Of a stretch of 40,319 nucleotides of DNA, positions 13,002-29,214 are shown piece by piece. Numbering within the stretch: the first letter of the stretch is position 1; each line of letters starts with the position of its first letter. The stretch spans positions 1 through 40,319 of the forward strand of contig JBFKII010000001.1 in the NCBI GenBank assembly GCA_041632295.1, in the 5' to 3' direction. The notes beneath the pieces were generated by a model, which had not been told where the DNA came from, searched no databases, and worked only from the letters and a program-made list of their open reading frames with translations. A program made the translations under genes and the position numbers. Source of the stretch: Anaerolineales bacterium (GTDB lineage: Bacteria; Chloroflexota; Anaerolineae; Anaerolineales; JABWBV01).

Positions 13002-14341
13002 GAGCTTTCTGAGGCCTCCTCGTCCTGAGCGTTGCGTTTATTCAGATGGATAATGACGCTTTGTACTGCCAATCGCTCGGTCGACTCGACTTCAAAACGC
13101 ACCCCCTGCGCGTCCACCGTGTCATTGGACTGCGGGATCCGCCCTAAAAGTTCCATCACCAGCCCCCCGACCGTGTGTGCTTCGGTTTCTTCGAAGTCCA
13201 GTGCGTAATGCTGGGATAATTCATCCAGCAGCAGATCGCCGCGCACCCGCAGAACGTTGGCGCTGATCTCCTGGATCGGAAGAATTTCCTGGTCAAATTC
13301 ATCCTGAATTTCCCCGACCACTTCTTCCACCAGGTCTTCCATGGACAGCACCCCGGCTGTGCCGCCGAATTCGTCGATCACGATGGCGAGCTGGATGTTT
13401 TCCTTCTGCAGACGCAGGAGCATGCGGTCCAGAATCAGGTTCTCGGGGACAAAAGCCGCCGGGCGAAGGATAGATTTCAGATCCAGGGGACCGTTCTGCG
13501 AACTTCGTGCCCGGGCCAGGTCCTTGATATGGAGGATGCCGATGATGTGGTCGATGTCCTCATCGTAGACCGGGTAGCGCGATTTGCGCGTCTCGCAGAT
13601 CCGCCGCAGGATGGTCTTTTCGTCTGAACCGAGCGGGATTCCGTGGACCTGAGTGCGAGGGGTCATGATCTGCTCTACCGTCCGGTCCGAGAGATCGAAA
13701 ATATTTTCGATGAAAAGCTGTTCGGAGGAATCGAGCATGCCGCCTTCCAGGCTTTCTTCGACGATAAATTCCAGCTCCTCTGGTGTAAACAGCCGGTCGC
13801 TGCCCTGCGCGGGGGGGATTCCCATCAGCCGCACGATCCAGTCTCCCAGGTAGTTGAGTCCCCAGACAAAAGGAAAAAACAGGATTTCAAAGAATGCCAT
13901 CGGCCGTGCCAGGGCCAGCACGGTCGGTTCAGAGGACTGCAACGCCATGGATTTGGGGATCATTTCCCCGATCACGACGTGCAAGTAGGTCATCGATACG
14001 ACCGCAAGCACGGTTGCCAGGGTGTGAGCCAGCGCTTCGCTCCCGATGCCGGCGTTTTCCAGGAAGTGCAAGATCCAGTCAGCGATGACATGCTCGCCGT
14101 AGGAGCCCAGCCCCAGGGTGACGATCGTGATGCCGACCTGGGCGGTGGCGATGTAGCGGTTTTGAAGGACAGGCTCCAAAAGGATTTTCAGGGTGCGCTG
14201 GGCGGCCCCGTCGCCGCGGTCTGCGCTCTGGGCGATGCGTGTCCGCGGGGCAGAGACGATCGCAAATTCCGCCGCCACGAACAGGCCGTTGAAAAAGATC
14301 AGGGCCAGAATAATCCCGATCGGAATGACCACTTCCGTCAT
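12998..14341 (-). CDS. CNNM/HlyC/CorC-family transporter (DUF21 + CBS pair + CorC_HlyC)
   Basis: 447 aa. Four-TM DUF21 N-terminus (NGLFVAAEFAIVS), a CBS pair and a C-terminal CorC_HlyC-like domain. ATGA overlaps at both ends. Confidence 0.85.
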   Translation of the reverse strand: MTEVVIPIGIILALIFFNGLFVAAEFAIVSAPRTRIAQSADRGDGAAQRTLKILLEPVLQNRYIATAQVGITIVTLGLGSYGEHVIADWILHFLENAGIGSEALAHTLATVLAVVSMTYLHVVIGEMIPKSMALQSSEPTVLALARPMAFFEILFFPFVWGLNYLGDWIVRLMGIPPAQGSDRLFTPEELEFIVEESLEGGMLDSSEQLFIENIFDLSDRTVEQIMTPRTQVHGIPLGSDEKTILRRICETRKSRYPVYDEDIDHIIGILHIKDLARARSSQNGPLDLKSILRPAAFVPENLILDRMLLRLQKENIQLAIVIDEFGGTAGVLSMEDLVEEVVGEIQDEFDQEILPIQEISANVLRVRGDLLLDELSQHYALDFEETEAHTVGGLVMELLGRIPQSNDTVDAQGVRFEVESTERLAVQSVIIHLNKRNAQDEEASESS

Positions 14342-15669
14342 GGCTCCCCCTCCCGGATCTTGCGGATGTATTCCGGCTGCGCCGCCATGTGGACCGCGGT
14401 GATCCCGCGGCCGCGCATCTTGGCGACCTCGAATGTCTGCCGGTTGATTTGAATTTCCTCTCCCACTTTCGGGACATGGCCGATGGAATTGAGGACCAGC
14501 CCCCCGACCGTATCGACATCCTCCTCCGGAAGCTCCAGGTTAAACCATTGGTTCAGGTCAGATACCAGCGTGTCCCCGCGGATCCACAGCCGGTCTTCGG
14601 AGAGGATCCGGACGGAGGGAATGTAGGTGTCAAATTCGTCCTGTAATTCCCCGAAAATCTCCTCGATCAGGTCCTCCAGGGTAACCATTCCAGCCGTGCC
14701 ACCAAACTCATCCAGCACGATGGCGACCTGAAGGTGGCGCCTTTGCAGCAGGGAAAATACGGTCTTAATCGGGGTGGTCTCCGGGACGAAGGGGACCGGC
14801 TTGATGATCGTTTCAACGGAAGCCTGGGAATCGCCCCCCAGGCAGAGCAGGTCCTTGAGATGGACAACGCCGACGATATTGTCGATGTTGCCACGGAACA
14901 CGGGCAGGCGGGAATAGGGGGAGGCGACCAGTGCCGCCAGCAGCTCGCCCCGGCTGTGGTTTGCCGGAGAAGTGAGCATGTGAGGGCGTGGAATCATCAC
15001 CTCTCGCACTTTGGAATTGCGCATTTGCAGCGTGTTTTTCAGCAGGCGGCGCTCTTCCTTCCGCAGGAGCCCTCCCTTGCCGCTCTCATCGACCAGCATG
15101 ACGATTTCATCGGGCGAGTGGATATGGGCGTGTTCGGCGATGATTTCCCGGCCAAACAGCCGCATGATCAGCTGCCCGCTGCCGATGAAAAACCAGATCA
15201 GCGGCGTGAAGGCGATCATCGACCAGCGCATGGGCGCCGAAGTTGTCAGCGCCAGGCGTTCGGGGTATTGCAGCCCGATGTTTTTAGGGACAAGCTCCCC
15301 AATCAGGACCTGCAGTGCGGTCAGGAACAGCAGCATGGTCGTCGCGCTGATCGATTGTGCCGCAACCAACGAAAAGTTTCCCCACTCGGCAACCAGCGGG
15401 TACACCATGTCCGTCAGGCGCGGCTGCCCATAGAAACCGACCATCAGGCTGGTTGCCGTAATCCCCAACTGGCAGGTGGCCACATAGGCATCCAGCTTGA
15501 CCGGATCATCCACGATGTCCAGGATCCAGCCGGCCAATGTGCCGCCATTCTCTGCCATCTGGGTCAATCGGGCTTTCCGTGCGCTGACGGCCGAAAATTC
15601 TGCTGCCACGTAGAGCGAATTCAGCAGGATCAGGATCAGCAGAATCAGTGAAACGATAAACAGGTCCAT
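14338..15669 (-). CDS. CNNM/HlyC/CorC-family transporter (paralog of the downstream gene)
   Basis: 443 aa with the same architecture (NSLYVAAEFSAVS; CBS pair; CorC_HlyC-like C-terminus). Confidence 0.85.
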   Translation of the reverse strand: MDLFIVSLILLILILLNSLYVAAEFSAVSARKARLTQMAENGGTLAGWILDIVDDPVKLDAYVATCQLGITATSLMVGFYGQPRLTDMVYPLVAEWGNFSLVAAQSISATTMLLFLTALQVLIGELVPKNIGLQYPERLALTTSAPMRWSMIAFTPLIWFFIGSGQLIMRLFGREIIAEHAHIHSPDEIVMLVDESGKGGLLRKEERRLLKNTLQMRNSKVREVMIPRPHMLTSPANHSRGELLAALVASPYSRLPVFRGNIDNIVGVVHLKDLLCLGGDSQASVETIIKPVPFVPETTPIKTVFSLLQRRHLQVAIVLDEFGGTAGMVTLEDLIEEIFGELQDEFDTYIPSVRILSEDRLWIRGDTLVSDLNQWFNLELPEEDVDTVGGLVLNSIGHVPKVGEEIQINRQTFEVAKMRGRGITAVHMAAQPEYIRKIREGEP

Positions 15670-17580: not shown

Positions 17581-18609
17581 CTATTCCTCGATCAGGAACA
17601 GCCAGGCGTTGTCAAACTGGCAGATGGTGCGGCCGGACTCGCTCAACGCCACAAGGACCACGAAGCCCTTCTCGAACTCCACATCCGCTTCGCGGAAGGC
17701 CTGTTCGCTGGCCCGAAACTGGGCGTTGATCTGTCCCACGATATTGTCGTATTCCGCCTTGGCCGCATCATACGCTTCCTTGGCATCCGGATTGGTTTCG
17801 ATGTCGGGCGGGGGCGTTGGGGCGGGGGGGATGAAGGGCCGCTGGGGAGGGTCGTTGACGTTAAATTGGGCGATCTGGGTGTCGTTCGTGAATAAGGTGA
17901 CGATCGGCCCCCGCATGACCACAGTCATGCGGTTGGTGGTGTCGTTTCGCCAGTCAAAGTTCGGATCCAGGCCGTAGGCGAAAAAATCCTTGTTGTTCAA
18001 TATTTCCCCTTCCACCATGATGGCAAACTGCACCCGGCCGGACCCGCCGCGCGTGGCGATCAGCAGGTATTGGTCAAAAGCTTCCTGGATGCCGTTGTTG
18101 CGCAGGGCGAAGCCGCAGCCCGAGGTGCCGAACTGTGTGTTCCAGGTGATGTCCGCCGACATGACGAAATCGGTCACCACCGTGCCCAGAAACTGGTTGG
18201 CATAATCGTATTGCAAATATCCGTCGATATCGAGCGTCACGGGTGGATGGATCCAGGCCGGACGGCCTTTTTCCGGATCGACACCGTATTTGGGCAGCTC
18301 AGCCAGGATCGGGGCGAACGCCTGCCGGGTCGCTTCGATTTGCTCAGCGGACAGGGCGGCGATCGCTTCTGCAGTGGCCTGGGCGTTCAGCGCTTGCTGG
18401 GTGGCCTGGGCCTCCGCCGTGGCCAGGTTTCCGGCTGTATCGAAACCCTGATCGGGCGACTCGCCAGCCCGGGCGGTGGCGGTCTGGGCGACTTTCAAGG
18501 CCAGTGCCTCTGCAGTGGCTTGTGAATCGCTTTGCCCTCCGCCGCCTAAGCATGCCATGGCGGCCAGCAGAAGTGCCCCTAGGATCCATGCGATCTTTCG
18601 GCCTGCCAT
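17581..18609 (-). CDS. probable lipoprotein with a concanavalin/LamG-like (DUF1080-like) jelly-roll domain and an aromatic-heptad helix
   Basis: The true start is probably ATG 18609 (MAGRKIAWILGALLLAAMAC, signal peptide plus Cys), which overlaps the upstream TGA by 1 nt (TGATG). The core FVMSADITWNTQFGTSGCGFALRN...WRNDTTNRMTVVMRGPIVTLFTND resembles lectin-like jelly rolls. The fold assignment is tentative. Confidence 0.6.
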   Translation of the reverse strand: MAGRKIAWILGALLLAAMACLGGGGQSDSQATAEALALKVAQTATARAGESPDQGFDTAGNLATAEAQATQQALNAQATAEAIAALSAEQIEATRQAFAPILAELPKYGVDPEKGRPAWIHPPVTLDIDGYLQYDYANQFLGTVVTDFVMSADITWNTQFGTSGCGFALRNNGIQEAFDQYLLIATRGGSGRVQFAIMVEGEILNNKDFFAYGLDPNFDWRNDTTNRMTVVMRGPIVTLFTNDTQIAQFNVNDPPQRPFIPPAPTPPPDIETNPDAKEAYDAAKAEYDNIVGQINAQFRASEQAFREADVEFEKGFVVLVALSESGRTICQFDNAWLFLIEE

Positions 18610-21600
18610 CAGTTGTCTTTCCGCTTTTGCATGATCAGAGTGCCGGTCAGAAGTACACCGATGATTAACCCCTGGGCGGCCCAGGTTGAGAGCACACGGC
18701 CGTAGTATTCGCCGGTGTTTCCTTTGTCCACCCAGGCCCAACCGAAGCTGTCCCTGATCTGGTATACAGCCCCCTCGGCAGCGCTGACCGGAATTTCAGC
18801 CGCAGCGGCCGCAGCAAAGCGCTGGAACTCCTGCTCCACGACGGCCTCCTGGTAAGCTGCAAATTCCGCCGCGTAGATATCTGCTTCCGCCTGATAGGCT
18901 TCCAGGTCGGCTTTGTATTGTTCCTGGATACCTTCCACGAGCACCTGGTACTCTTGCAGGGCCGCCAGGTATTCGGCGACGGCGACCGTGTCCGCCTGGT
19001 TTTCAGGCTCGATCGGGGGCGGCGGGACGTCCGGCTCGGGCGGCGGGTCCCGCAGCGGAGCGGGCTCAGGAGGCAGCTCGGTTTCCTCGAACGTCCCCTC
19101 CACGTAGAACTGGCCCATGCCGGGGAAGTGGCAGGCGCTTTGGTCGATGATGTTCAGGCCCATGCAGCTGCATTCCTGGGTGCGCTGTTCCAGGTCCATG
19201 AGGGAGATGGTCTCCGGAGGCAGGTCCCAGCAGGGATCCGCCGCGATGTCCGAGCCCACTCCGGTGATCGCCATGAAGGCTTCGAAGCCCCAGCGAGTCG
19301 AAAACGGCGCGCTGATGAACTCCGGAACCGGAACCAATGCGCCCCCCAGCACGATTTGAGGCAGCATAAAAACGATCACGATCAGCGGTGCGGCATTCGA
19401 GGATGGGGCCAGCGCAGAGGCGAACAACCCCAGCATCATGCCCCCCATGGTCGCCAGGGCCATGCTGATGTACATCAGCACGAATTCGGTCGCGCCTCCG
19501 GGCATGTCGAAGGCGAAATAATGGATACCGATGTACCAGATGGCCTGGTAAAGGGCCAGCAGGCCTGCGACCCAGACCTTGGAGAAAATGTACGGGATGA
19601 TCTTCAGGTTGACCAGCCGCTCCCGCTTGTAGATCTCCCCCTCCTTGACGATCTCTCGCATCTGAGAAATGCCACCCAGCATCACTCCGTAAATGGTGAG
19701 GATAAACAGAGTGATGATGACCGCAAAGGCATCCCCATCCGCCCAGGCGAACGGATCGCGGCCCATCAGGCTGGCCAGCAGGATGTCGAGGGAGCCGATC
19801 ACCGGCGGTGCCAGAAGCATCAGCGCCAGGCTGAAGCGGTCGCGGGTCAGGATTTTCAGGTTGCGCGCCGATAGGATGAAGAACTGGCGCAAGGCGGAGA
19901 CTTGTTTGCGGGCCCGAGAATCGCCCGCAGTGGCCGCCCGCCCGGTTTCCGGCGTTTGCCGCCCCCCCTGCTGCATCATCTGGCTGCGGTCGGCCAGCGG
20001 GGTGGCCACGTAGCGGTTGTATGCCGGGTGGCGCATGTAGCGTTCGGCCCATTCCTGGGGACTGCCCTTTTGGGAATCGTCCAGCAGGGCGTAGATCTCG
20101 TCGAACTCCATCTCCCCGGCGCGCTGGTCGCGCTCGGAACGGTACTGGTTGAAATAGGAGAGCGCTTCATCCGGCGCCCCAAACCAGACCAGGTAGCCGC
20201 CGCGCGCCAGGAAGACCACCTTGTCGGCCAGCATGACGTTCTTGGTGGCATGCGTGATCAAAACGATGGTGCGTCCCTGGTCCGCCAGACGCCGCATGAG
20301 CTGCATCAGGGCGGTCTCCGTTCCAGGATCAAGCCCGGAGGATGGCTCGTCCAGGAAAAATAGCCCGGGTCGCGTCAGCAGCTCCACGCCGATGCTGACG
20401 CGTTTCTGCTGGCCGCCGGAAAGCTGGCTGATGGCCGTGTCCTTCCGGTGGGCGATGTCCAGGTCTTCCAACGTTTCCATCACTCGCTGGTGGCGCTCTG
20501 CCTTGCTGGTGTCCGGCGGCATGCGCAACTGGGCGGAGTAATCCAGGGCTTGAAAAACCGTCAATTCTTTGTGGATGATGTCCTTCTGCGGAACGTAGCC
20601 CAGGTTGTTGCGGATGGCGTCGAAATTCTCGTAAACGTCGATCCCGTTGACGAACACCTTGCCGTGCGTGGCAGGCCGGTAGCCGGCGATCGAGTCCACC
20701 AGGGTGGACTTGCCGCCTCCCGATTGGCCGACGACGACGATGAACTCGCGCGGCTCAAAATTGAGCGATATGTTCTGCAGGATGTTGAGGTCTTTGCGAA
20801 CCCACTTGTTCAGCCCCACGGCCTCGACTTCCAAACTGCCGCTCTCATCGATCTGAGACAGCTCGTCCTCCCCCATGACGAAATTGTAGGAACCGATCCG
20901 CACCGTGTCCTGGGCATTCAGCCACATTTCGCCTTCCACCGGACGGTTGTTGACGAACGTGCCGTTCGAACTGCGCAGATCGCGCACCCGGTAGCGTTTG
21001 CCCACCCTTTCAATCAGGGCGTGGTGCCGGGAAACCTGCGGGATGTCCAGGACGATATCGTTGGTAGGGTCGCGACCGATCTGCAGCACCGACTTTTCTC
21101 CAAAGCGCACCGTTTCCACCCGGCTCAAAGCTTCCGACGGGGCCAGGTAGGTCATGGTGACCATCAGTCCGGGGTCGTTGCTGCCGATGCGGATTTTGGC
21201 GCCGTGGTGCAGGCGGGTCGGCCTGGTGACCGTCGCGCCGTCCAGGAAGGTGGGGTTGCTGGCAGTGGGTTCCACGACCAGGTTGTATCCGCCGTCTTCC
21301 CGCTTTTCCAGCCGCGCGTGGTTGCGCGAGACGATCTTGGACCCGATCACGATATCGTTCCCCTGCTCCCTGCCGATGGTGACCTGCAGCCGGTTCAGGG
21401 GATACGTCTGGGAAGGACCGCCGGCCACGCTGACGGACAGCTCGGATGGTCCGGTCTGGCCGCCGATTTCCCCGATCACGGTCGCGGCTGCCCCGGAGGG
21501 GCCTGGGGGAGGCGGCGCCGGCTTGGGGGGTGGAGGGGGGTCGGCGCTGGGACGGCCGATCGGCCGTGGCGGGGAAGGCATTGCGGGCGAGGCCTCCACC

Positions 21601-21950
21601 CGGGTTCCACCTGCGGCGGAATCGGTCACTTCGGTCGATACGCCGGGCTGCGCCTCGATGCTGCAGACCAGGCGGACATTTTGACCCAGACCGATCTGAT
21701 CGCCGTTGCGCAGGGTGACCGCTTCGCTGATGCGCTGGCCGTTGACGAATGTGCCGTTGGTGCTTTCCAGGTCTTCGATCCGGAGTTTGCCGTCCTGGTA
21801 CAGGAGCCTGGCATGGCGGCTGGAGACGCCGCTCCCGGGGATCAGAAGGTCCGATGGTGCGACGCGCCCGATGATAGTCTCTGGCTGCGTGATTTCAAAT
21901 TCCATCCGGCGAGCAGAGACGCTGTCTAAAATAAGTTTAGGATTGCTCAA
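18609..21950 (-). CDS. triple-FHA-domain ABC transporter (FHA x3, NBD and ABC-2/ABCG-type permease fused), Rv1747-like
   Basis: Three FHA cores (IIGR..SSRHARL..STNGTFVNG; TIGRE..VSRNHARL; IGRD..VSRHHALI..SSNGTFVNN). Walker A GQSGGGKST, signature LSGGQQKR, Walker B LFFLDEPSSGLD. Six predicted TM helices. TTG start at 21950 with GGAAGG upstream. Confidence 0.9.
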   Translation of the reverse strand: MSNPKLILDSVSARRMEFEITQPETIIGRVAPSDLLIPGSGVSSRHARLLYQDGKLRIEDLESTNGTFVNGQRISEAVTLRNGDQIGLGQNVRLVCSIEAQPGVSTEVTDSAAGGTRVEASPAMPSPPRPIGRPSADPPPPPKPAPPPPGPSGAAATVIGEIGGQTGPSELSVSVAGGPSQTYPLNRLQVTIGREQGNDIVIGSKIVSRNHARLEKREDGGYNLVVEPTASNPTFLDGATVTRPTRLHHGAKIRIGSNDPGLMVTMTYLAPSEALSRVETVRFGEKSVLQIGRDPTNDIVLDIPQVSRHHALIERVGKRYRVRDLRSSNGTFVNNRPVEGEMWLNAQDTVRIGSYNFVMGEDELSQIDESGSLEVEAVGLNKWVRKDLNILQNISLNFEPREFIVVVGQSGGGKSTLVDSIAGYRPATHGKVFVNGIDVYENFDAIRNNLGYVPQKDIIHKELTVFQALDYSAQLRMPPDTSKAERHQRVMETLEDLDIAHRKDTAISQLSGGQQKRVSIGVELLTRPGLFFLDEPSSGLDPGTETALMQLMRRLADQGRTIVLITHATKNVMLADKVVFLARGGYLVWFGAPDEALSYFNQYRSERDQRAGEMEFDEIYALLDDSQKGSPQEWAERYMRHPAYNRYVATPLADRSQMMQQGGRQTPETGRAATAGDSRARKQVSALRQFFILSARNLKILTRDRFSLALMLLAPPVIGSLDILLASLMGRDPFAWADGDAFAVIITLFILTIYGVMLGGISQMREIVKEGEIYKRERLVNLKIIPYIFSKVWVAGLLALYQAIWYIGIHYFAFDMPGGATEFVLMYISMALATMGGMMLGLFASALAPSSNAAPLIVIVFMLPQIVLGGALVPVPEFISAPFSTRWGFEAFMAITGVGSDIAADPCWDLPPETISLMDLEQRTQECSCMGLNIIDQSACHFPGMGQFYVEGTFEETELPPEPAPLRDPPPEPDVPPPPIEPENQADTVAVAEYLAALQEYQVLVEGIQEQYKADLEAYQAEADIYAAEFAAYQEAVVEQEFQRFAAAAAAEIPVSAAEGAVYQIRDSFGWAWVDKGNTGEYYGRVLSTWAAQGLIIGVLLTGTLIMQKRKDN

Positions 21951-22043: not shown

Positions 22044-23303
22044 TCACCGCTCCACCAACCGCACCGGGTCGAATAAGCCTGCCAAACGCGCCCCCCAGCC
22101 AAGCAGGGCCTCGTCCCGGTACCAGGAACCGGTCAGCTGGAGGCCGAGCGGGAGACCTGCAGGGTTCCTCCCGGAAGGGATCGTCAGCGTCGGCAGTCCG
22201 GCCTGGGTCCAGGGCAGGTTCATGACCGGGTTGCCGGTGCTCTCCAGCCCGAGTGGGGCTGCTCCTGGAGCAGAAGGGGAGATCCACAGGTCAATGCCTT
22301 CGCTTTCCATGACCGTTACCAGGTCCTGCCGGAATTGGGAGATTTCCAACCGGGCGGCGGACAGTTCCTCGTCAGAAATTTGGGATCCGGTTTCGATCAG
22401 TTCGGCAGTTTTCGGGTGGTAGCGGGCGTGATGCTGTTCGAACCATTCCCGGTGGGTGCGGGCGGCCTCGGCAGCCACCACCAGGTTGTGGCGGGAAACT
22501 ACCCGATCAAAATCTGCAAACATCGGCACCTCTCGGACCGCAAAACCCGCCGATTCCAGCCGCTGCCGGTCCTTCTCAAATTGGGCTTGACCCTCTTCAT
22601 CCGACCGGAGAAGATAGGGCCCTGCAGGTACGCCCAGGACGGGTCCGGTCTTTGCCTCGCCCGGCCGCCAGTCACGGCATAGGATGGAAGCCAGATTGGA
22701 GAGGGTTTCGAAGTCTGCGGAAAGCAGCCCGACATGGTCCAGCGAAACCGACAGGGGGATGACCCCCTGTGTGGAAATGCGATCCCGGCTGGGCTTGAAC
22801 CCGAACACCCCACAAAAAGCCGCGGGCCGGTTGATCGAGCCGATCGTCTGGGTGCCCAGCGCCGCATCGCACAGACCGGCCGCGGCTGCAGCCGCCGAGC
22901 CGCTGGATGAGCCGCCCGGGGTGTGCCCGGGGTTGTGTGGGTTGCGAGTCGGACCCGGCCCGAAATAGGCAAATTCAGTCGTTACGGTTTTTCCGACGAT
23001 CAAAGCGCCCGCATGGCGCAAAAGGCGGACGGATTCGGCCTGAGGTCCGTGCAAGAGTTCCGGGGGCAACCGGCTGCCTGCCCGGGTCGGAAACCCGTCC
23101 ACGTGAAAAATATCCTTGACACCGACCAGACTTCCGTACAGGGGCGGCCGGGAATCCGGGGAAGGGTAGGTCTCCGCCAGCGTTCGGGCCTCGCGCCGCA
23201 GGCGCGAAAAGCGCCCGTTTTCAGGAGCGTAGGCATGGATCTCCCCTTCAAAGATGTGAAAGCGGCGCTCGAGCTCGTCGATTTTGGAGGACAGGTCTGT
23301 CAT
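22044..23303 (-). CDS. amidase-signature (AS) family amidase
   Basis: VGVKD (catalytic Lys) and GGSSSGSAAAAAAG (Ser-cisSer). 419 aa, so shorter than GatA. Confidence 0.85.
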   Translation of the reverse strand: MTDLSSKIDELERRFHIFEGEIHAYAPENGRFSRLRREARTLAETYPSPDSRPPLYGSLVGVKDIFHVDGFPTRAGSRLPPELLHGPQAESVRLLRHAGALIVGKTVTTEFAYFGPGPTRNPHNPGHTPGGSSSGSAAAAAAGLCDAALGTQTIGSINRPAAFCGVFGFKPSRDRISTQGVIPLSVSLDHVGLLSADFETLSNLASILCRDWRPGEAKTGPVLGVPAGPYLLRSDEEGQAQFEKDRQRLESAGFAVREVPMFADFDRVVSRHNLVVAAEAARTHREWFEQHHARYHPKTAELIETGSQISDEELSAARLEISQFRQDLVTVMESEGIDLWISPSAPGAAPLGLESTGNPVMNLPWTQAGLPTLTIPSGRNPAGLPLGLQLTGSWYRDEALLGWGARLAGLFDPVRLVER

Positions 23304-23364
23304 GGTTTTGAGGCTTTCCTCAGCGGACTCTAATACGAAATAAGCCTGGGGGCAAGTCGCACCA

Positions 23365-23374
23365 GGGCGACCGT
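23365..23374. repeat. target-site duplication, left copy (GGGCGACCGT)
   Basis: Identical 10-mer at 23552-23561, directly abutting the other end of the element. Confidence 0.8.
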
Positions 23375-23551
23375 CATGGCTTTCTCAAAGTCGCGAAACC
23401 TGGCGGAAAACGCTGGTTGAACGTGCCCTGAGTGCAATCGAAGGGCCTGTCGAGACCCAGTTTTCCGCCTTTCTCGGTTTCGATACGGCTGCTTCGCGGC
23501 CTACTCGACCAGCGAAAGGCTCTTTTGTCAACGGACTTTGAGAACGCCTTG
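23375..23551 (-). mobile_element. MITE-like non-autonomous element, copy A (177 bp, 18-bp imperfect TIRs)
   Basis: TIRs are CATGGCTTTCTCAAAGTC (23375-23392) and the reverse complement of 23534-23551 (CAAGGCGTTCTCAAAGTC), matching 16/18. Flanked by a perfect 10-bp direct repeat. The interior is self-complementary. About 90% identical to the reverse complement of 28219-28417. Confidence 0.8.
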
Positions 23552-23561
23552 GGGCGACCGT
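23552..23561. repeat. target-site duplication, right copy (GGGCGACCGT)
   Basis: Identical to 23365-23374. Confidence 0.8.
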
Positions 23562-23620
23562 AAGTTTGAAAAGAGTGGGATCGTCAAAAAAAGACCCCGA
23601 AACCGAACGAGGACCTGCAC

Positions 23621-24925
23621 ATGCAAAAAAAATATCGATTGCCAGTCGTGATCGGATCCATATTTCTCTTTTTTTTGGCGGCCTGCACCCCGGCGGGTGC
23701 CGGTCCGGCTGCGGAGGAGACCGATCCGGTGGAAGCGACCGAAGCGGCCCAGCCGACAACCGAGCCGCTTCCCACGGAGACGAACGAAGCGACTGAGGCG
23801 CCTGGCCCTGTCGAAAACTCGACCGCTACGCACTCGGAGGCTGCTTCTTGTGAAGATCCATTTGAGGGGGAATCGTTGCGCTTCAACCCCTCGTTCTGGC
23901 GCGAGACCAATTTTTGCCTGCACAGTGTGGACTTTAGCGAGTTCCTTTCCGGCGGGCCGCCTCCGGACGGCATCCCGCCGATAGACGACCCGGTGTTCGA
24001 TTCCGTGGATGCGGCAGATGAGTGGCTTGGGGACCACTGGCCGGTGATGTTTTTCGAATGGGATGGGGATGCACGAGCGTATCCGCTGGCCATCCTGATG
24101 TGGCACGAGATCGTCAACGATGAGGTCGGCGGCCTGCCGGTCACACTGACTTTCTGCCCGCTATGCAATGCCACCATCGCTTTCAACCGCACCCTCCCGG
24201 ACGGCGCCGTGCTCGATTTCGGCACATCCGGCAACCTGCGCAATTCGGACCTGGTCATGTACGACCGCCAGACTTTTTCCTGGTGGCAGCAGTTCACCGG
24301 TGAGGCGGTGGTCGGGGATATGACCGGCACGGTCCTTGAATTTCTGCCCTCCCAGATCATTGCCTGGGAGGATTTCAAGAACAACCACCCCGAAGGCATG
24401 GTGCTCTCGAGGGAGACCGGCCACGTTCGCAGCTACGGCACCAACCCTTACGGTGGATATGATGATATTTTGACCAACCCCTTCCTGTTTGACGGCGAAT
24501 TGGACGGCCGGCTGGCCGCAAAGGAACGGGTTGTGGCGGTCGAGTTGAACGGGGTCGATGTAGCCTATCCATTCCTGGAGCTGGAAGTCGCCCAGGTTGT
24601 TAACGACGAGATCGGCGGCGAGCCGGTGGTTGTGCTGTGGACCGGCAACACCGGATCCGCTCTCGATAGCCGCAGTTTCGATGACGCCCGGCTGGTCGGC
24701 TCGACGGCCGTCTTCCACAGGACCGTGGACGGGCAGGTGCTGACCTTTGAGGCTGCTGAGGAAGGTTTCCTGGATTTGGAAACAGGAAGCCGATGGAATA
24801 TATTCGGTGAGGCGATCGATGGCCCGCTGGCCGGTACGAAACTTGACCAGGTGGTCTCTGCGGAGCACTTCTGGTTTGCCTGGGCGGTCTTCAAGCCGGA
24901 TACGATCATTTGGACGGCGGAGTAA
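23621..24925 (+). CDS. DUF3179-domain lipoprotein
   Basis: Lipobox FFLAAC. DGIPPIDDPVF, ARAYPLAILMWHEIVNDEVGGLPVTLTFCPLCNATIAFNR and HFWFAW are hallmark DUF3179 motifs. GAGGA lies 7 nt upstream. Confidence 0.85.
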   Translation: MQKKYRLPVVIGSIFLFFLAACTPAGAGPAAEETDPVEATEAAQPTTEPLPTETNEATEAPGPVENSTATHSEAASCEDPFEGESLRFNPSFWRETNFCLHSVDFSEFLSGGPPPDGIPPIDDPVFDSVDAADEWLGDHWPVMFFEWDGDARAYPLAILMWHEIVNDEVGGLPVTLTFCPLCNATIAFNRTLPDGAVLDFGTSGNLRNSDLVMYDRQTFSWWQQFTGEAVVGDMTGTVLEFLPSQIIAWEDFKNNHPEGMVLSRETGHVRSYGTNPYGGYDDILTNPFLFDGELDGRLAAKERVVAVELNGVDVAYPFLELEVAQVVNDEIGGEPVVVLWTGNTGSALDSRSFDDARLVGSTAVFHRTVDGQVLTFEAAEEGFLDLETGSRWNIFGEAIDGPLAGTKLDQVVSAEHFWFAWAVFKPDTIIWTAE

Positions 24926-26187
24926 ACGCTTTTCCGGTCTTAACCATCCGCGCCTGGAGCCTGTTGTTCCTGCTGGCGCTCGCAGCCTGCACACGGCTTG
25001 GGGAAAGCGCGACTCCAGAAGCGACACCGATTACGCCCTCCGCTTTCAATCCAACACTGGCTGCACCCACCCCGGTCGAGCCGGGCCTCGATCTACCGCT
25101 TGATCTGGCCCCGCAAATCCCAGAATCGATCCCACCTCCGGATACCAGCCGGCACCGGGTGCCGCTCGACCGGATCTATTTCGACACCTTTCAGCCTGTA
25201 AACCGGTCCGTCCCGCTGAGTTCGGCTTCCCCCGAGCTGATCGAAAGGCTGCTGGACGCCATCCCCCCGATCCACGATCCCCGCTTTGTAAGCGCGGCTG
25301 AAAGCGATTGGCTGGAAAGCGATTCGATGGTGCTCGGTTACGCCACGGCGGAAGGGGCCTGGGCTTTTCCAGTCCGGATTCTGAATTTCCACGAGATCGT
25401 CAACACGGTGATAGGCGGGGAGCCGATCCTGGTTTCTTATTGCCCGCTGTGCTACAGCGGCATCGTCTACAGCCGCCGGATGGCAGGGGGGGTCCTCACC
25501 TTTGGCAACACCAGCGCGCTGTACGAATCGGACATGGTCATGGTGGATTACCAGACCGGCAGCTACTGGTGGCAGGTAGCGGGGTCCGCCATTGTGGGCC
25601 CGTTGACCGGTTCGCAGCTGACCGTGCTCCCCGGCGTGATGTCGTCCTGGGGAGCCTGGCGGAACCTGTACCCTGACACCCTGGTGATGTCTCGCGATAC
25701 GGGCTACGCCCGCAATTACGACCGGGACCCTTTTTCCTCATATGCCGAGTTCATCAACGGCGGCACCTGGGCGTTCCCGGTCAGCCAGGCAGCCCGCGAC
25801 CCGCGGCTTCGGCCCGCCGACATCGTTGCTGCCATACGGGTCGGCGACACGGTACGCGGATATCCGATCGCCGGTGAGGTACCGGTTGTCTTCAACGATA
25901 CGATCGAAGGCCAACCCGTACTGGTGGTCGGGGTGCCCGCCGATGGTTTTGCGGCAGCTTACAGCCCGGTAGTGGACGCTTTGCGGCTCGAATTCCGGTT
26001 TGAAAATGGGGGGATCGCAGACCGCCAGACTGGGAGTACCTGGACAATAACCGGGAAGGCAACTTCCGGCCCGATGTCCGGGCAGATGTTGCAGCCGCTG
26101 GCGATGAAGACCACGTACTGGTTTGCGATCGCGGCGGCTGAACCCGAAATCACCCTGGCGGTTCCGGATTCAGGTTCCACTCGTTAA
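24910..26187 (+). CDS. DUF3179-domain lipoprotein (tandem paralog)
   Basis: Lipobox LALAAC. IPPIHDPRF, AFPVRILNFHEIVNTVIGGEPILVSYCPLCYSGIVYSR and TYWFAI. The TTG start at 24910 overlaps the upstream gene by 16 nt; the start is uncertain. Confidence 0.8.
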   Translation: MDGGVNAFPVLTIRAWSLLFLLALAACTRLGESATPEATPITPSAFNPTLAAPTPVEPGLDLPLDLAPQIPESIPPPDTSRHRVPLDRIYFDTFQPVNRSVPLSSASPELIERLLDAIPPIHDPRFVSAAESDWLESDSMVLGYATAEGAWAFPVRILNFHEIVNTVIGGEPILVSYCPLCYSGIVYSRRMAGGVLTFGNTSALYESDMVMVDYQTGSYWWQVAGSAIVGPLTGSQLTVLPGVMSSWGAWRNLYPDTLVMSRDTGYARNYDRDPFSSYAEFINGGTWAFPVSQAARDPRLRPADIVAAIRVGDTVRGYPIAGEVPVVFNDTIEGQPVLVVGVPADGFAAAYSPVVDALRLEFRFENGGIADRQTGSTWTITGKATSGPMSGQMLQPLAMKTTYWFAIAAAEPEITLAVPDSGSTR

Positions 26188-26646
26188 GGAGACGATCTCC
26201 GCTTTTTCCAGTGCGCCGATCAGATCGCTCACTTGAAGAAAGATCGTGGTGCCCGGCAGGCCGGACCCGAGGGAAATTTCTTGCTGCTCGAGCACGCTTG
26301 AGTCAACCAGAATGCGCAGAGGATGCGGCAGACCGAAGGGGGAAACCGCGCCGATTTCGTATCCGGTCACCTGCCGGACCTCCTCCGGACTGGCCATCGT
26401 GAGCCGGGATTGGCCCAAATATTTTCGCAGCCCAGACCAGTCGATCTGCTGAGGCCCGGCGACCAGCACCATGACATAAACCTGCTCCGAGATCCGGAAC
26501 ACGATCGACCGCACCACCTGCTCCGGCAGCTGGCCGCGTTCCCGGGCGGCCTGCTCGAGGGAGAATATCCTGCCGGGATGCCGGAACTCCCGATAGGTAA
26601 TGCCCAGGGCTTGAAGCTGGGCTGCGACAGGGGAAGCCACGCTCAT
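26170..26646 (-). CDS. YbaK/EbsC/ProX-type aminoacyl-tRNA deacylase domain protein
   Basis: 158 aa. GYEIGAVSPFG and ISLGSG motifs. ATGA overlap with dinB. Confidence 0.8.
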   Translation of the reverse strand: MSVASPVAAQLQALGITYREFRHPGRIFSLEQAARERGQLPEQVVRSIVFRISEQVYVMVLVAGPQQIDWSGLRKYLGQSRLTMASPEEVRQVTGYEIGAVSPFGLPHPLRILVDSSVLEQQEISLGSGLPGTTIFLQVSDLIGALEKAEIVSLTSGT

Positions 26647-27728
26647 TCTGCGTCCAGGAACGTCATCTGCCTGGGTGGATCGACCAGTCCGCTGACCCCA
26701 ACACCGATCAAGCGAACCGGTCTGCCCGGCTGCCAGACTGCCGAAAGCAGTTGCCAGGCATGGCCGGCGATGGCCTCCCCGCTGGCTGTGGGAATGGAAA
26801 AAGTAACCTGGCGGGTCAGGGTCTGAAAATCCGGCCAGCGGACCTTAATGCGGACTGTGACCGCGGCCTTACCGCGTCGCTGCAGGACGCGGCCCAGGTG
26901 CAAGGCCTGCCGGTTCACCTCTGCCTGCAAGCGCGTGGCCGAACGTACGTCTTTTGAAAATGTGACCTCCTGGCTGAAGGATTTTGCCTCCCGATCCACC
27001 ACGACAGGGGACTCGTCGATCCCCTGGGCCCGCTGGACCATGTCGCGGCCGTGCTTTCCAAAGATTTCTGCTAGCAGTCCTCGATCTGAGGCCGCAAGGT
27101 CGCCGATCGTGCGGATTCCCAGCTCGGCAAGGCGCGCCTCCGTCTTCGGCCCGATTCCCCAGAGCGACCGCACGGGCAGCGGGGCCAGGAATTCGGCCTC
27201 CGTTCCCTTGGGGACGATGGTCAGCGCGTTAGGGGGAGATCCGCCCACCGCCTGGCTTTTTCCGAAATCGTTGGCGATCTTGGCCAACAGCTTGTTAGAC
27301 GCCAGGCCCAGGGAACAGGGCAGCTCCAGTTCCGTACGGATCTGCTGCTGCAGGCGCCGGGCAAGGATCTCCGCCGGTTCATCAATTTCCGTCACATCCA
27401 GGAAGGCCTCATCGATGGAAAGTTGCTCCACGAGCGGCGTCACATTTTCCAGCCGGGCCATCACTTTTTTAGACTCTTTGGCATACGCGGCGAAGTCCCC
27501 GGAGAGGACCTCCAGGTCCGGGCACAGGCGGAGTGCGCGCCCCATCGGCATCGCCGACCGAACGCCGAAACTCCGTGCGGGGTACGAGCATGACGCAACC
27601 ACTCCGCGTTGCTCGGGGCGTCCACCCACCGCGAACGGCTTGCCCCGCAGGTCAGGGCGACGCTGCTCTTCAACGGCGCAGTAAAAGGCATCCAGGTCGA
27701 GGTGGATGATCCGCCGGTCTTTTTTCAT
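26643..27728 (-). CDS. dinB: DNA polymerase IV (Y-family translesion polymerase)
   Basis: IIHLDLDAFYCAVEE, KPFAVGG, ASCSYPARSFGV, SIDEAFLDV, SLGLASNKLLAKIA and LWGIGPKT are canonical DinB motifs. Confidence 0.95.
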   Translation of the reverse strand: MKKDRRIIHLDLDAFYCAVEEQRRPDLRGKPFAVGGRPEQRGVVASCSYPARSFGVRSAMPMGRALRLCPDLEVLSGDFAAYAKESKKVMARLENVTPLVEQLSIDEAFLDVTEIDEPAEILARRLQQQIRTELELPCSLGLASNKLLAKIANDFGKSQAVGGSPPNALTIVPKGTEAEFLAPLPVRSLWGIGPKTEARLAELGIRTIGDLAASDRGLLAEIFGKHGRDMVQRAQGIDESPVVVDREAKSFSQEVTFSKDVRSATRLQAEVNRQALHLGRVLQRRGKAAVTVRIKVRWPDFQTLTRQVTFSIPTASGEAIAGHAWQLLSAVWQPGRPVRLIGVGVSGLVDPPRQMTFLDAE

Positions 27729-28198
27729 TCAAAAATATCCATCCCCTCCGGGATCTGGAAAACGGTCACTTCGGCGCGCACGGTGATTTTGCCATCCGCA
27801 CTGACGGACACCGCAACTTTAACTTTCCTCCCGTCGACTTTATTGACCCAGGCGCGCAGCATGAGGGTCGAATCGATCGGGGTGGGCGCCTCAAAGCGCA
27901 CGTTCAGCGAGCCGGTCACGAAGCGAAATGGCGGTTCGCTGTCCATCGACCGGTTTTCCTGGCGGTACATGGCGGCTGCGGCCGTGCCGGTGGCATGGCA
28001 GTCGACCAGGGATGCCAGCAGCCCGCCGTAGGTATACCCCGGAACCGCGGTGTGGTATGGGCGCGGGCGGAAATGGCACACTACTTCATCGCCTTCCCAG
28101 TAGCTCTTGATCTGCAGCCCCTGGGGGTTGAGCCGGCCGCAGCCGTAACACACCGCGTATTTCCCTTCATAAAAATCCTGGACGGCTTTTTCGCTCAT
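27725..28198 (-). CDS. PaaI-family hotdog-fold thioesterase
   Basis: CYGCGRLNPQGLQI N-terminal motif and GGLLASLVDCH. 157 aa. ATGA overlap with dinB. Confidence 0.75.
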   Translation of the reverse strand: MSEKAVQDFYEGKYAVCYGCGRLNPQGLQIKSYWEGDEVVCHFRPRPYHTAVPGYTYGGLLASLVDCHATGTAAAAMYRQENRSMDSEPPFRFVTGSLNVRFEAPTPIDSTLMLRAWVNKVDGRKVKVAVSVSADGKITVRAEVTVFQIPEGMDIFE

Positions 28199-28205
28199 GG
28201 GGGAA

Positions 28206-28211
28206 AGTATA
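28206..28211 (-). promoter_or_regulatory. -10-like hexamer TATACT, 7 nt upstream of ATG 28198 (possible leaderless promoter of the thioesterase-dinB-ybaK operon)
   Basis: The minus strand reads TATACT-TTCCCCC-ATG with no SD. MITE copy B starts 7 nt upstream of the hexamer. Confidence 0.35.
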
Positions 28212-28218
28212 ATCCCTG

Positions 28219-28417
28219 CAAGGCGTTCTCAAAGTCCGTTGACAAAAAGGCCTTTCGATGGTTGAGTAGGCCGCGAAGCGGCCGTATCGAAATCGAGAAA
28301 GGCGGAAAATTGGGTTTTGACAGGCCCTTCGACAGGCCCTTCGACAGGCTCAGGGCAGGCTCAGGGCATGCTCAACCAGCGTTTTCCGCCAGGTTTCGCG
28401 ACTTTGAGAAAGCCATG
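28219..28417 (+). mobile_element. MITE-like non-autonomous element, copy B (199 bp)
   Basis: TIRs are CAAGGCGTTCTCAAAGTC (28219-28236) and GACTTTGAGAAAGCCATG (28400-28417). The flanking 10-mers ATAATCCCTG (28209-28218) and ATTATCCGTG (28418-28427) match 8/10. Identical runs of 29 nt and 47 nt are shared with copy A. Confidence 0.8.
28321..28367. repeat. copy-B-specific tandem micro-duplications (12 bp x2, then 11 bp x2)
   Basis: CAGGCCCTTCGA x2 at 28321-28344 and AGGCTCAGGGC x2 at 28346-28367. Copy A has each unit only once. Confidence 0.85.
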
Positions 28418-28436
28418 ATTATCCGTGCGGAGACGG

Positions 28437-28465
28437 TTGACGCCAGCCGCCGGCGCGGCTAAAAT
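28437..28465 (+). promoter_or_regulatory. sigma-70-type promoter of rplY (TTGACG, 17 nt, TAAAAT)
   Basis: TTGACG at 28437-28442, an exact 17-nt spacer, then TAAAAT at 28460-28465. It lies about 90 nt upstream of the ATG at 28555. Confidence 0.55.
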
Positions 28466-28554
28466 TGCCCCCGCTGTCCGACCTGGACGGCGAATCGACC
28501 GGTAGGGCGAGGGTAACCGAAATCCGTCGGTGAGAGGCGCCCGAGGAAGGAAAC

Positions 28555-29214
28555 ATGTCAGAAAGGATTATCTTACCCGCTGACCACCGCAAAGTGATCG
28601 GCAAAAAAGTTAAAGTCTTGCGCCGGGAGGGGAAGCTGCCCGCCATTGTTTACGGCAGCGGCATCGAGCCGACCCCGATCGTCATGGACATGCACGAAGC
28701 CACCAAGTCCCTGCGCACCGTGACTTCATCAACGCTGGTTTTGCTCGATATCGAAGGCAAGGAGCAGCTGGCCCTGGTGCGGGATCGCCAGGTGGATCGA
28801 TTGAAGAACATGATTCTGCACGTCGATTTTTTGGCGGTCTCCATGGGGCAAACCCTGCAGGCTACGGTCCCCATCCGGCTGGTCGGCCACGCACCGGTCC
28901 TGGATGATTTTGACGCCCTGGTGATGCAGGATACCGAGAGCCTGGAAGTCGAGGTGCTGCCGAAGGACCTGCCGGAGGTCATCGAAGTGGATGTCTCCGT
29001 GCTGACTGAACTGGGCAGCAGCATATCGATCACCGATCTGGACCTGCCAGAGGGGGTCAATGTTCTGACCGACCCCGATACGCTGATCGCAGTCGCCTTA
29101 TCCGCCGCCCGCGAAGAAGAAGAGGAAGAGGAAGAAGAGGAACTGCTGCCGGAGGATGCCGAGCCGGAACTGATCGAACGCGGCAAGCAGGAAGAAGACG
29201 AAGAAGAGGAGTAA
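28555..29214 (+). CDS. rplY: 50S ribosomal protein L25 / general stress protein Ctc form, with a poly-acidic C-terminal tail
   Basis: LPADHRKVIGKKVKVLRREGKLPAIVYG N-terminus, RDRQVDRLKNMILHVDF, and a two-domain Ctc-length protein. The tail is EEEEEEEEELLPEDAEPELIERGKQEEDEEEE. GGAAGG SD. Confidence 0.9.
   Translation: MSERIILPADHRKVIGKKVKVLRREGKLPAIVYGSGIEPTPIVMDMHEATKSLRTVTSSTLVLLDIEGKEQLALVRDRQVDRLKNMILHVDFLAVSMGQTLQATVPIRLVGHAPVLDDFDALVMQDTESLEVEVLPKDLPEVIEVDVSVLTELGSSISITDLDLPEGVNVLTDPDTLIAVALSAAREEEEEEEEEELLPEDAEPELIERGKQEEDEEEE

Follow-up and report, generated by a model that had tools for sequence, protein, structure and literature searches.

A probable miniature inverted-repeat element with ISAs1-type ends at two intergenic sites of an Anaerolineales genome

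Between the divergently transcribed amidase and DUF3179 genes of an Anaerolineales contig lies a short non-coding segment bounded by identical direct repeats. Is this segment a mobile element, and if so, which family of transposases recognises its ends, or is it a regulatory RNA or a chance palindrome? We addressed this question in a stretch of 40,319 nucleotides, called the window throughout, and by comparison with related genomes and metagenomes. Direct reading of the sequence showed a segment of 177 bp (copy A) in an intergenic position, flanked by 10-bp direct repeats that are identical at 10/10 positions. Its terminal inverted repeats (TIRs) match at 16 of 18 positions, with CATGGCTTTCTCAAAGTC at 23375-23392 opposed to CAAGGCGTTCTCAAAGTC, the reverse complement of 23534-23551, and the subterminal sequences at the two ends are GCGAAACCTGG and CCGTTGACAAAAG. 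The boundaries, repeats and TIRs were all found as an initial annotation of the locus had given them. The features of this site are listed below, where labels beginning with L denote loci in other genomes or metagenomes.

22044..23303, minus strand: amidase gene (context; Pfam PF01425), with its start codon 61 bp from the copy A duplication.
23365..23374, no strand: left 10-bp target-site duplication of copy A, GGGCGACCGT, read directly; a single decamer, CCGCAGCCGT, is found in L287.
23375..23551, plus strand: copy A of the probable MITE, a non-coding, hairpin-forming segment of 177 bp (sequence, BLAST, folding); absent from the orthologous intergenic region of L287.
23375..23397, plus strand: TIR of copy A with subterminal GCGAA, 23/23 against the transposase-distal (IRR-type) end of the insertion sequences L182 and L222.
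23522..23551, minus strand: TIR of copy A with subterminal TTGACAA motif, matching the transposase-proximal (IRL-type) end of the insertion sequence L215.
23552..23561, no strand: right 10-bp target-site duplication of copy A, GGGCGACCGT, read directly.
23621..24925, plus strand: DUF3179 gene (context; Pfam PF11376), with its start codon 59 bp from the copy A duplication.

The interior had been described as strongly self-complementary, and folding agrees. As RNA, copy A forms a long hairpin with a minimum free energy of -76 kcal/mol, compared with -54.5 for shuffled sequences (z = -5.2), and as DNA it also folds better than shuffles (z = -3.1). Exactly four termini (at most three mismatches) were found in the 40-kb window, whereas 0.03 were expected from dinucleotide shuffles, which excludes a chance palindrome. 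Directly 3' of copy A, two DUF3179 paralogues are arranged in tandem and overlap (23621-24925 and 24910-26187).

The four termini belong to two elements. BLAST confirmed that a second copy lies 4.7 kb away, as had been noted initially, and placed it on the opposite strand with a length of 199 bp (copy B). The two copies are identical at 161/177 ungapped columns (91%), close to the earlier estimate of about 90%, and differ in addition by one 22-bp insertion in copy B, which consists of 11-12 bp tandem units at the hairpin apex. The TIRs of copy B also match at 16 of 18 positions, and its fold is again better than that of shuffles (z = -4.5). Copy B is flanked by its own pair of 10-mers, identical at 8/10 positions, and is located between a divergent 4HBT thioesterase-dinB operon and the gene for ribosomal protein L25. 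The inverted orientation, the length gained by tandem expansion and the separate, degenerate duplication go beyond the initial annotation. Copy B escaped a scan of the window for direct repeats, owing to its inverted orientation and the indel. Since 22 bp is not a multiple of three, copies A and B have no reading frame in common, which agrees with the earlier statement that no open reading frame is preserved between them. The features of the second site are as follows.

27725..28198, minus strand: thioesterase (4HBT) gene, first of the 4HBT-dinB operon (context; Pfam PF03061), with copy B 20 bp upstream of its start codon.
28209..28218, no strand: first target-site duplication of copy B, ATAATCCCTG; L124 has a single ATAATCCGGA.
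28219..28417, minus strand: probable MITE copy B, 199 bp, inverted relative to copy A (BLAST, alignment); absent from the L25/thioesterase intergenic region of L124.
28418..28427, no strand: second target-site duplication of copy B, ATTATCCGTG, 8/10 against the first.
28437..28465, plus strand: promoter-like TTGACG-17-TAAAAT upstream of the L25 gene (context; consensus scan), 10 bp past the copy B duplication and conserved in L124.

Beside copy B, about 52 nt of the 5' leader of the L25 gene (28472-28554) are identical in L124, a relative at 77% identity, in an otherwise diverged intergenic region. The leader has no Rfam match and folds weakly better than shuffles (z = -1.5), and could be an uncharacterised autoregulatory leader of L25. 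Elsewhere in the window, no tRNA was found, and a Pfam scan identified the ten flanking genes as ordinary cellular genes. An open reading frame of 1113 aa at 18609-21950 combines three FHA domains, an ABC ATPase and an ABC-2 membrane domain in an unusual fusion that is conserved in related MAGs. Two pairs of direct repeats (13292-13411 with 14629-14748, and 13517-13582 with 14848-14913), 71-72% identical and about 1335 bp apart, most likely reflect two tandem paralogous genes.

To see the two sites without the elements, we used the nearest organism outside the species, found in JGI sample 3300045739, which shares 77% identity with the window in its DinB and DUF3179 proteins. At site A, the relative (L287) keeps the amidase/DUF3179 pair with an intergenic region of 120 bp, compared with 317 bp in the window, and holds one CCGCAGCCGT in place of the element and its two flanking GGGCGACCGT repeats. 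At site B, the relative (L124) keeps the divergent L25/thioesterase pair with an intergenic region of 149 bp, compared with 356 bp in the window, and one ATAATCCGGA replaces ATAATCCCTG, the element and ATTATCCGTG. Homology resumes on both sides of the decamer at either locus. The empty site that the initial annotation had proposed to look for was thus found at both loci. It had also considered that the 10-mer duplication might pre-exist in related genomes without the element; the single decamers of L124 and L287 indicate that the duplication does not predate the element. Synteny was lost at the other relatives of DinB (L125 and L126) and DUF3179 (L288), and no empty sites could be read there.

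Within the species, at least 10 NCBI MAGs (GCA_0415/0416 series) have contigs that encode identical copies of proteins of the window, and the homologues of these proteins carry the name Anaerolineales. Every related MAG contig that spans the two sites (ten contigs were read) carries both insertions there, so that they are fixed in the sampled population. The insertion had been called relatively recent, and this holds in a relative sense only, since both copies are fixed in these ten contigs. Several related MAG contigs end within the element, which is the usual behaviour of assemblers at repeats. The hairpin apex differs between strains by tandem duplications of 11-12 bp (window 28260-28345 for copy B and 23430-23440 for copy A, compared with L003, L006, L009 and L002), with indels of 11-23 bp. 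At site B the element measures 199 bp in the window and 176 bp in other MAGs, and at site A 177 bp in the window and 188 bp in L002.

We then asked how widely the termini occur. A scan of one genome per species with CAWGGCKTTCTCAAAGTC returned at least 113 stretches, mostly from Anaerolineales/Chloroflexota MAGs. Among the genome stretches listed, likeness to the element of the window is confined to the terminal 18-24 nt, and the interiors differ. Elements were defined as two inverted termini no more than 400 bp apart, which gave 50 in a first set among the matches listed. In this set the flanking repeats were perfect at a length of 10 bp in 24/50 elements, had one mismatch in 10 and two mismatches in 4; at 9 or 11 bp, none of these 50 was perfect. 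Displaced control positions always had at least five mismatches. With the metagenome scan added, at least 72 short elements were confirmed, with lengths of 66-374 bp and about 15 interior subfamilies; the 10-bp duplications of the 72 elements listed were perfect in 44, with one mismatch in 18 and with two in 10. All confirmed genome loci with visible titles among the matches listed (29/29) were from Anaerolineales/Chloroflexota. Within individual MAGs a given end is found next to several different flanks, with at least five sites in one MAG for other subfamilies, indicating that the elements are multi-copy per genome. The subfamily of the window itself is known from two copies, both in the window: its interior was found in no other genome locus among the matches listed, and the subfamily-specific 22-mer TTCTCAAAGTCGCGAAMCCTGG had no match in the JGI metagenome collection.

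Two sets of matches were set aside. The 31 hits of a scan of viral contigs, none of them paired or with a duplication, were treated as chance, as were 18-mer matches in Bacteroidales, Clostridia and other phyla, which were unpaired and in some cases within a conserved gene. At L066, L091, L105, L110 and L118, elements as short as 66-68 bp were observed that share the termini of the family and have perfect 10-bp duplications; 143-bp members of their subfamily occur alongside them in the MAGs concerned. These 66-68 bp elements consist of scarcely anything beyond two terminal repeats and rank with the smallest apparently mobile elements known to us.

Which transposase, then, do these ends belong to? 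The initial annotation had proposed a search for a full-length insertion sequence (IS) with the same termini, and such elements were found in metagenomes, 1307-1308 bp in length, at L215, L182, L222 and L210. Like the short elements, they create 10-bp duplications: that of L215 is perfect (CTCTCAGTTT), as are those of L278 and L286 (GGCTGCCCCC and CGGCTTAGGG), where 1307-bp elements are located inside long contigs. At L280 the duplication is 9 bp. Each full-length IS is filled by one open reading frame of about 400 aa. Against the NCBIfam model of the ISAs1 family transposase (NF033564, cutoff 70), the products of L215 and L210 scored 232 and 200 bits, respectively. More than 5000 relatives of the transposase were found at E<=1e-30, all of them with PF01609 and PF13808; the latter (DDE_Tnp_1_assoc) is the N-terminal domain throughout the ISAs1-named proteins that were compared. 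The sources name these relatives ISAs1-family or YbfD/YdcC, for example in Thermanaerothrix sp., and many of them are on contigs of about 1.3 kb, as expected of a repeat that assembles alone. TBLASTN with the 400-aa transposase of the 1307-bp IS found nothing significant in the window, in agreement with the transposase-free window described initially. The open reading frames beside unpaired termini in the genome loci were housekeeping genes and no transposases, and an all-against-all BLASTP of the open reading frames in these loci revealed no multi-copy transposase.

Traces of the IS were also seen in MAGs. In the contigs of L034, L048, L061, L085 and L117 (MAG JBBILY...bin_22) and of L047 and L067 (MAG CAYWIC...), the sequence breaks off 51-54 nt into the left end of the IS, and the flank differs from contig to contig, which shows that the IS is multi-copy and near-identical in those MAGs and fragments their assemblies. 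One further locus, L102 (5922-7237), has termini 1316 bp apart and was considered as a parent IS. It was rejected, as its open reading frame is of the IS110 family (DEDD) and there is no duplication. There, an IS110 transposase gene (PF01548 and PF02371) is located between two termini of the superfamily, and similarity to a MITE subfamily extends over the first 34 nt and then breaks off, so that L102 has the appearance of a MITE copy interrupted by an IS110 element. Elements of the IS110 type choose specific target sequences, and MITE repeats like those at L102 might serve as their landing sites.

The ends were initially called IS4-/ISAs1-type, and the two halves of this label fared differently. 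The IS231, ISH8 and IS4Sa subgroups of the IS4 family have CA or CAT ends and duplications of about 10 bp. The CAT ends and 10-bp duplications observed here are compatible with several IS4 subgroups, and the IS4 model NF033592 gives a faint match of 20 bits, although for L210 only and not for L215. This is far under the cutoff of 115, however, and the only full-length elements with these termini pass the ISAs1 equivalog model, and all close homologues of their transposases carry PF13808. We therefore retain the ISAs1 half of the label and regard an IS4 parent, for example one of the subgroups named above, as very improbable and close to refuted.

The ends of the window element further match those of the IS in a polarity-specific way. 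The left end of copy A is identical over 23/23 nt (CATGGCTTTCTCAAAGTCGCGAA) to the end of the IS that is distal to the start of the transposase, and its right end, CAAGGCGTTCTCAAAGTCCGTTGACAAAAG, resembles the start-proximal end of L215, GATGGCGTTCTCAAAGTTCCTTGACAATTG, including the TTGACAA motif. Two full-length IS, each decayed in place by internal deletion, would also leave ends homologous to those of an IS, and just two copies of the subfamily are known. Against this, copies A and B share an interior of about 130 bp in which no similarity to the full-length IS copies could be detected, and two independent deletions would not yield a common non-IS sequence at 91% identity; in other subfamilies, many short copies with the same interior are located at different sites with perfect duplications. 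The common interior thus supports descent from one transposed short element, and decay in place at both sites is highly unlikely. Because the interior is unlike the IS, the origin of the short element by internal deletion is a step that we infer.

A structured cis-regulatory or small RNA at both divergent promoter regions, flanked by incidental direct repeats, would account for the strong folding of both copies and for their location in the 5' regions of divergently transcribed genes. No known RNA family was recognised: the Rfam search suggested initially gave no match in the whole window at gathering thresholds, and none over 23250-28620 at E<=1. In the relative, both orthologous sites lack the element, with the flanking genes and promoter-like motifs conserved. 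Across species the termini are conserved and the interior is not, and between strains the hairpin apex tolerates the indels described above. Such an RNA is accordingly most unlikely as the primary nature of the segment, and a secondary co-option, which may have occurred, is compatible with the same evidence. A REP/BIME-like palindrome spread by a RAYT (Y1) transposase would likewise be a short, intergenic, palindromic repeat, but REPs to our knowledge make no target-site duplications, and this least probable reading is already refuted by the duplication statistics (exact in 44/72 elements listed and absent in controls) and disfavoured by the DDE-type IS with the same ends, just as its companion, a chance palindrome, is by the number of termini in the window.

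Taken together, we consider it highly likely that the segment is a non-autonomous DNA transposon, or MITE, with ends recognised by a DDE transposase of the ISAs1 family. The MITE reading of the initial annotation is upheld by the TIRs, the duplication, the empty sites, the terminus-defined family and the full-length IS, all of which are present. The anatomy, both empty sites, the family-wide 10-bp duplication, the autonomous IS with its family and the polarity-specific homology of the ends are observed, and from them we infer mobilisation in trans and the chemistry of transposition. A transposase made elsewhere, of the kind encoded by the 1307-bp ISAs1-family IS found in other Anaerolineales, would bind the termini of about 18-23 bp and excise or copy the element. 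On insertion the target would be cut with a stagger of 10 bp, whose repair would create the 10-bp duplication, and the chemistry would be that of DDE transposases. We know of no biochemical dissection of ISAs1 transposition. The two copies of one subfamily would have been inserted independently into two divergent intergenic regions after the split from the relative that is about 77% identical in protein, and would later have been fixed in the sampled population.

The positions of the two copies raise the possibility of effects on the neighbouring genes. Copy A splits the divergent control region of the amidase and DUF3179 genes. Within the terminal repeat of copy B, a TTGAGA is located by eye 15 nt upstream of a conserved TATACT beside the thioesterase gene. 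A consensus scan found no sigma-70-like promoter created by copy A or B, so the idea of a hybrid promoter comes down to this TTGAGA-15-TATACT arrangement as read by eye; the TTGAGA could act as an outward-facing -35 element, to which we attach little weight. A bolder reading, that this is the first documented radiation of MITEs mobilised by ISAs1, with at least 15 interior subfamilies on one pair of ends in Anaerolineales, and that the copies in the window have been co-opted for gene control, appears unlikely.

The finding provides a clean, fully footprinted MITE together with its parent IS for the Chloroflexota, a phylum known mostly from MAGs, and adds an example to the ISAs1 family, whose transposition has been little studied. 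As such repeats break short-read assemblies of Anaerolineales, known termini will help scaffolding and annotation. Insertions in divergent promoter regions, here near the dinB operon and the gene for L25, are candidate causes of expression differences at the strain level. The concept of how MITEs work is unchanged. In a literature search we found neither a MITE linked with ISAs1 nor an account of MITEs from Anaerolineae/Chloroflexi; judged from this literature, ISfinder aside, the MITE family of the window is provisionally regarded as undescribed.

The ISAs1 family has as its prototype ISAs1 of Aeromonas salmonicida and includes the H-repeat/YbfD-YdcC proteins of E. coli, and its direct repeats are generally given as 8-10 bp. 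Its inverted repeats have been described as 14-22 bp long and starting with CAGGG, with direct repeats of 10 bp (PMC11946415). The partner IS described here, with its 1307 bp, one open reading frame, match to NF033564, PF13808 and PF01609 domains, inverted repeats of about 18 bp and 10-bp duplication, resembles this family (PMC11946415). In place of CAGGG, the MITE ends start with CATGG or CAAGG and the IS ends with CATGG, GATGG or TATGG, with 4/5 bases matching and GATGG or TATGG at the transposase-proximal IS end. Unlike the members of the family, the element of the window is 177-199 bp long and has no transposase, and is a derivative rather than an IS. The hosts of the elements found here are Anaerolineales/Chloroflexota.

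In Microcystis aeruginosa NIES-843, the multi-copy inverted-repeat elements MaeMITEa-h are 176-429 bp long and have been assigned no parent IS family, and the same genome also holds ISMae35 of the ISAs1 family (PMC2779907). Their likeness to the element of the window in size, in inverted repeats and in the presence of an ISAs1-family IS in the genome is one of description and not of relatedness. MIC231 of Bacillus cereus and RUP of Streptococcus pneumoniae are said to derive from IS231 (IS4 family) and IS630-Spn1, respectively. MITEs of this type resemble the present ones in design: they keep both ends of the IS but no transposase, are shorter than 400 bp, have a hairpin-forming interior, lie between genes, make a duplication as long as that of the parent and comprise many subfamilies with one common set of ends. 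They differ from those described here, whose parent family is ISAs1 and whose interior is unrelated to the parent IS. Beside these systems, the element is a textbook MITE of the ISAs1 family, an ordinary mobile element that is not conceptually surprising.
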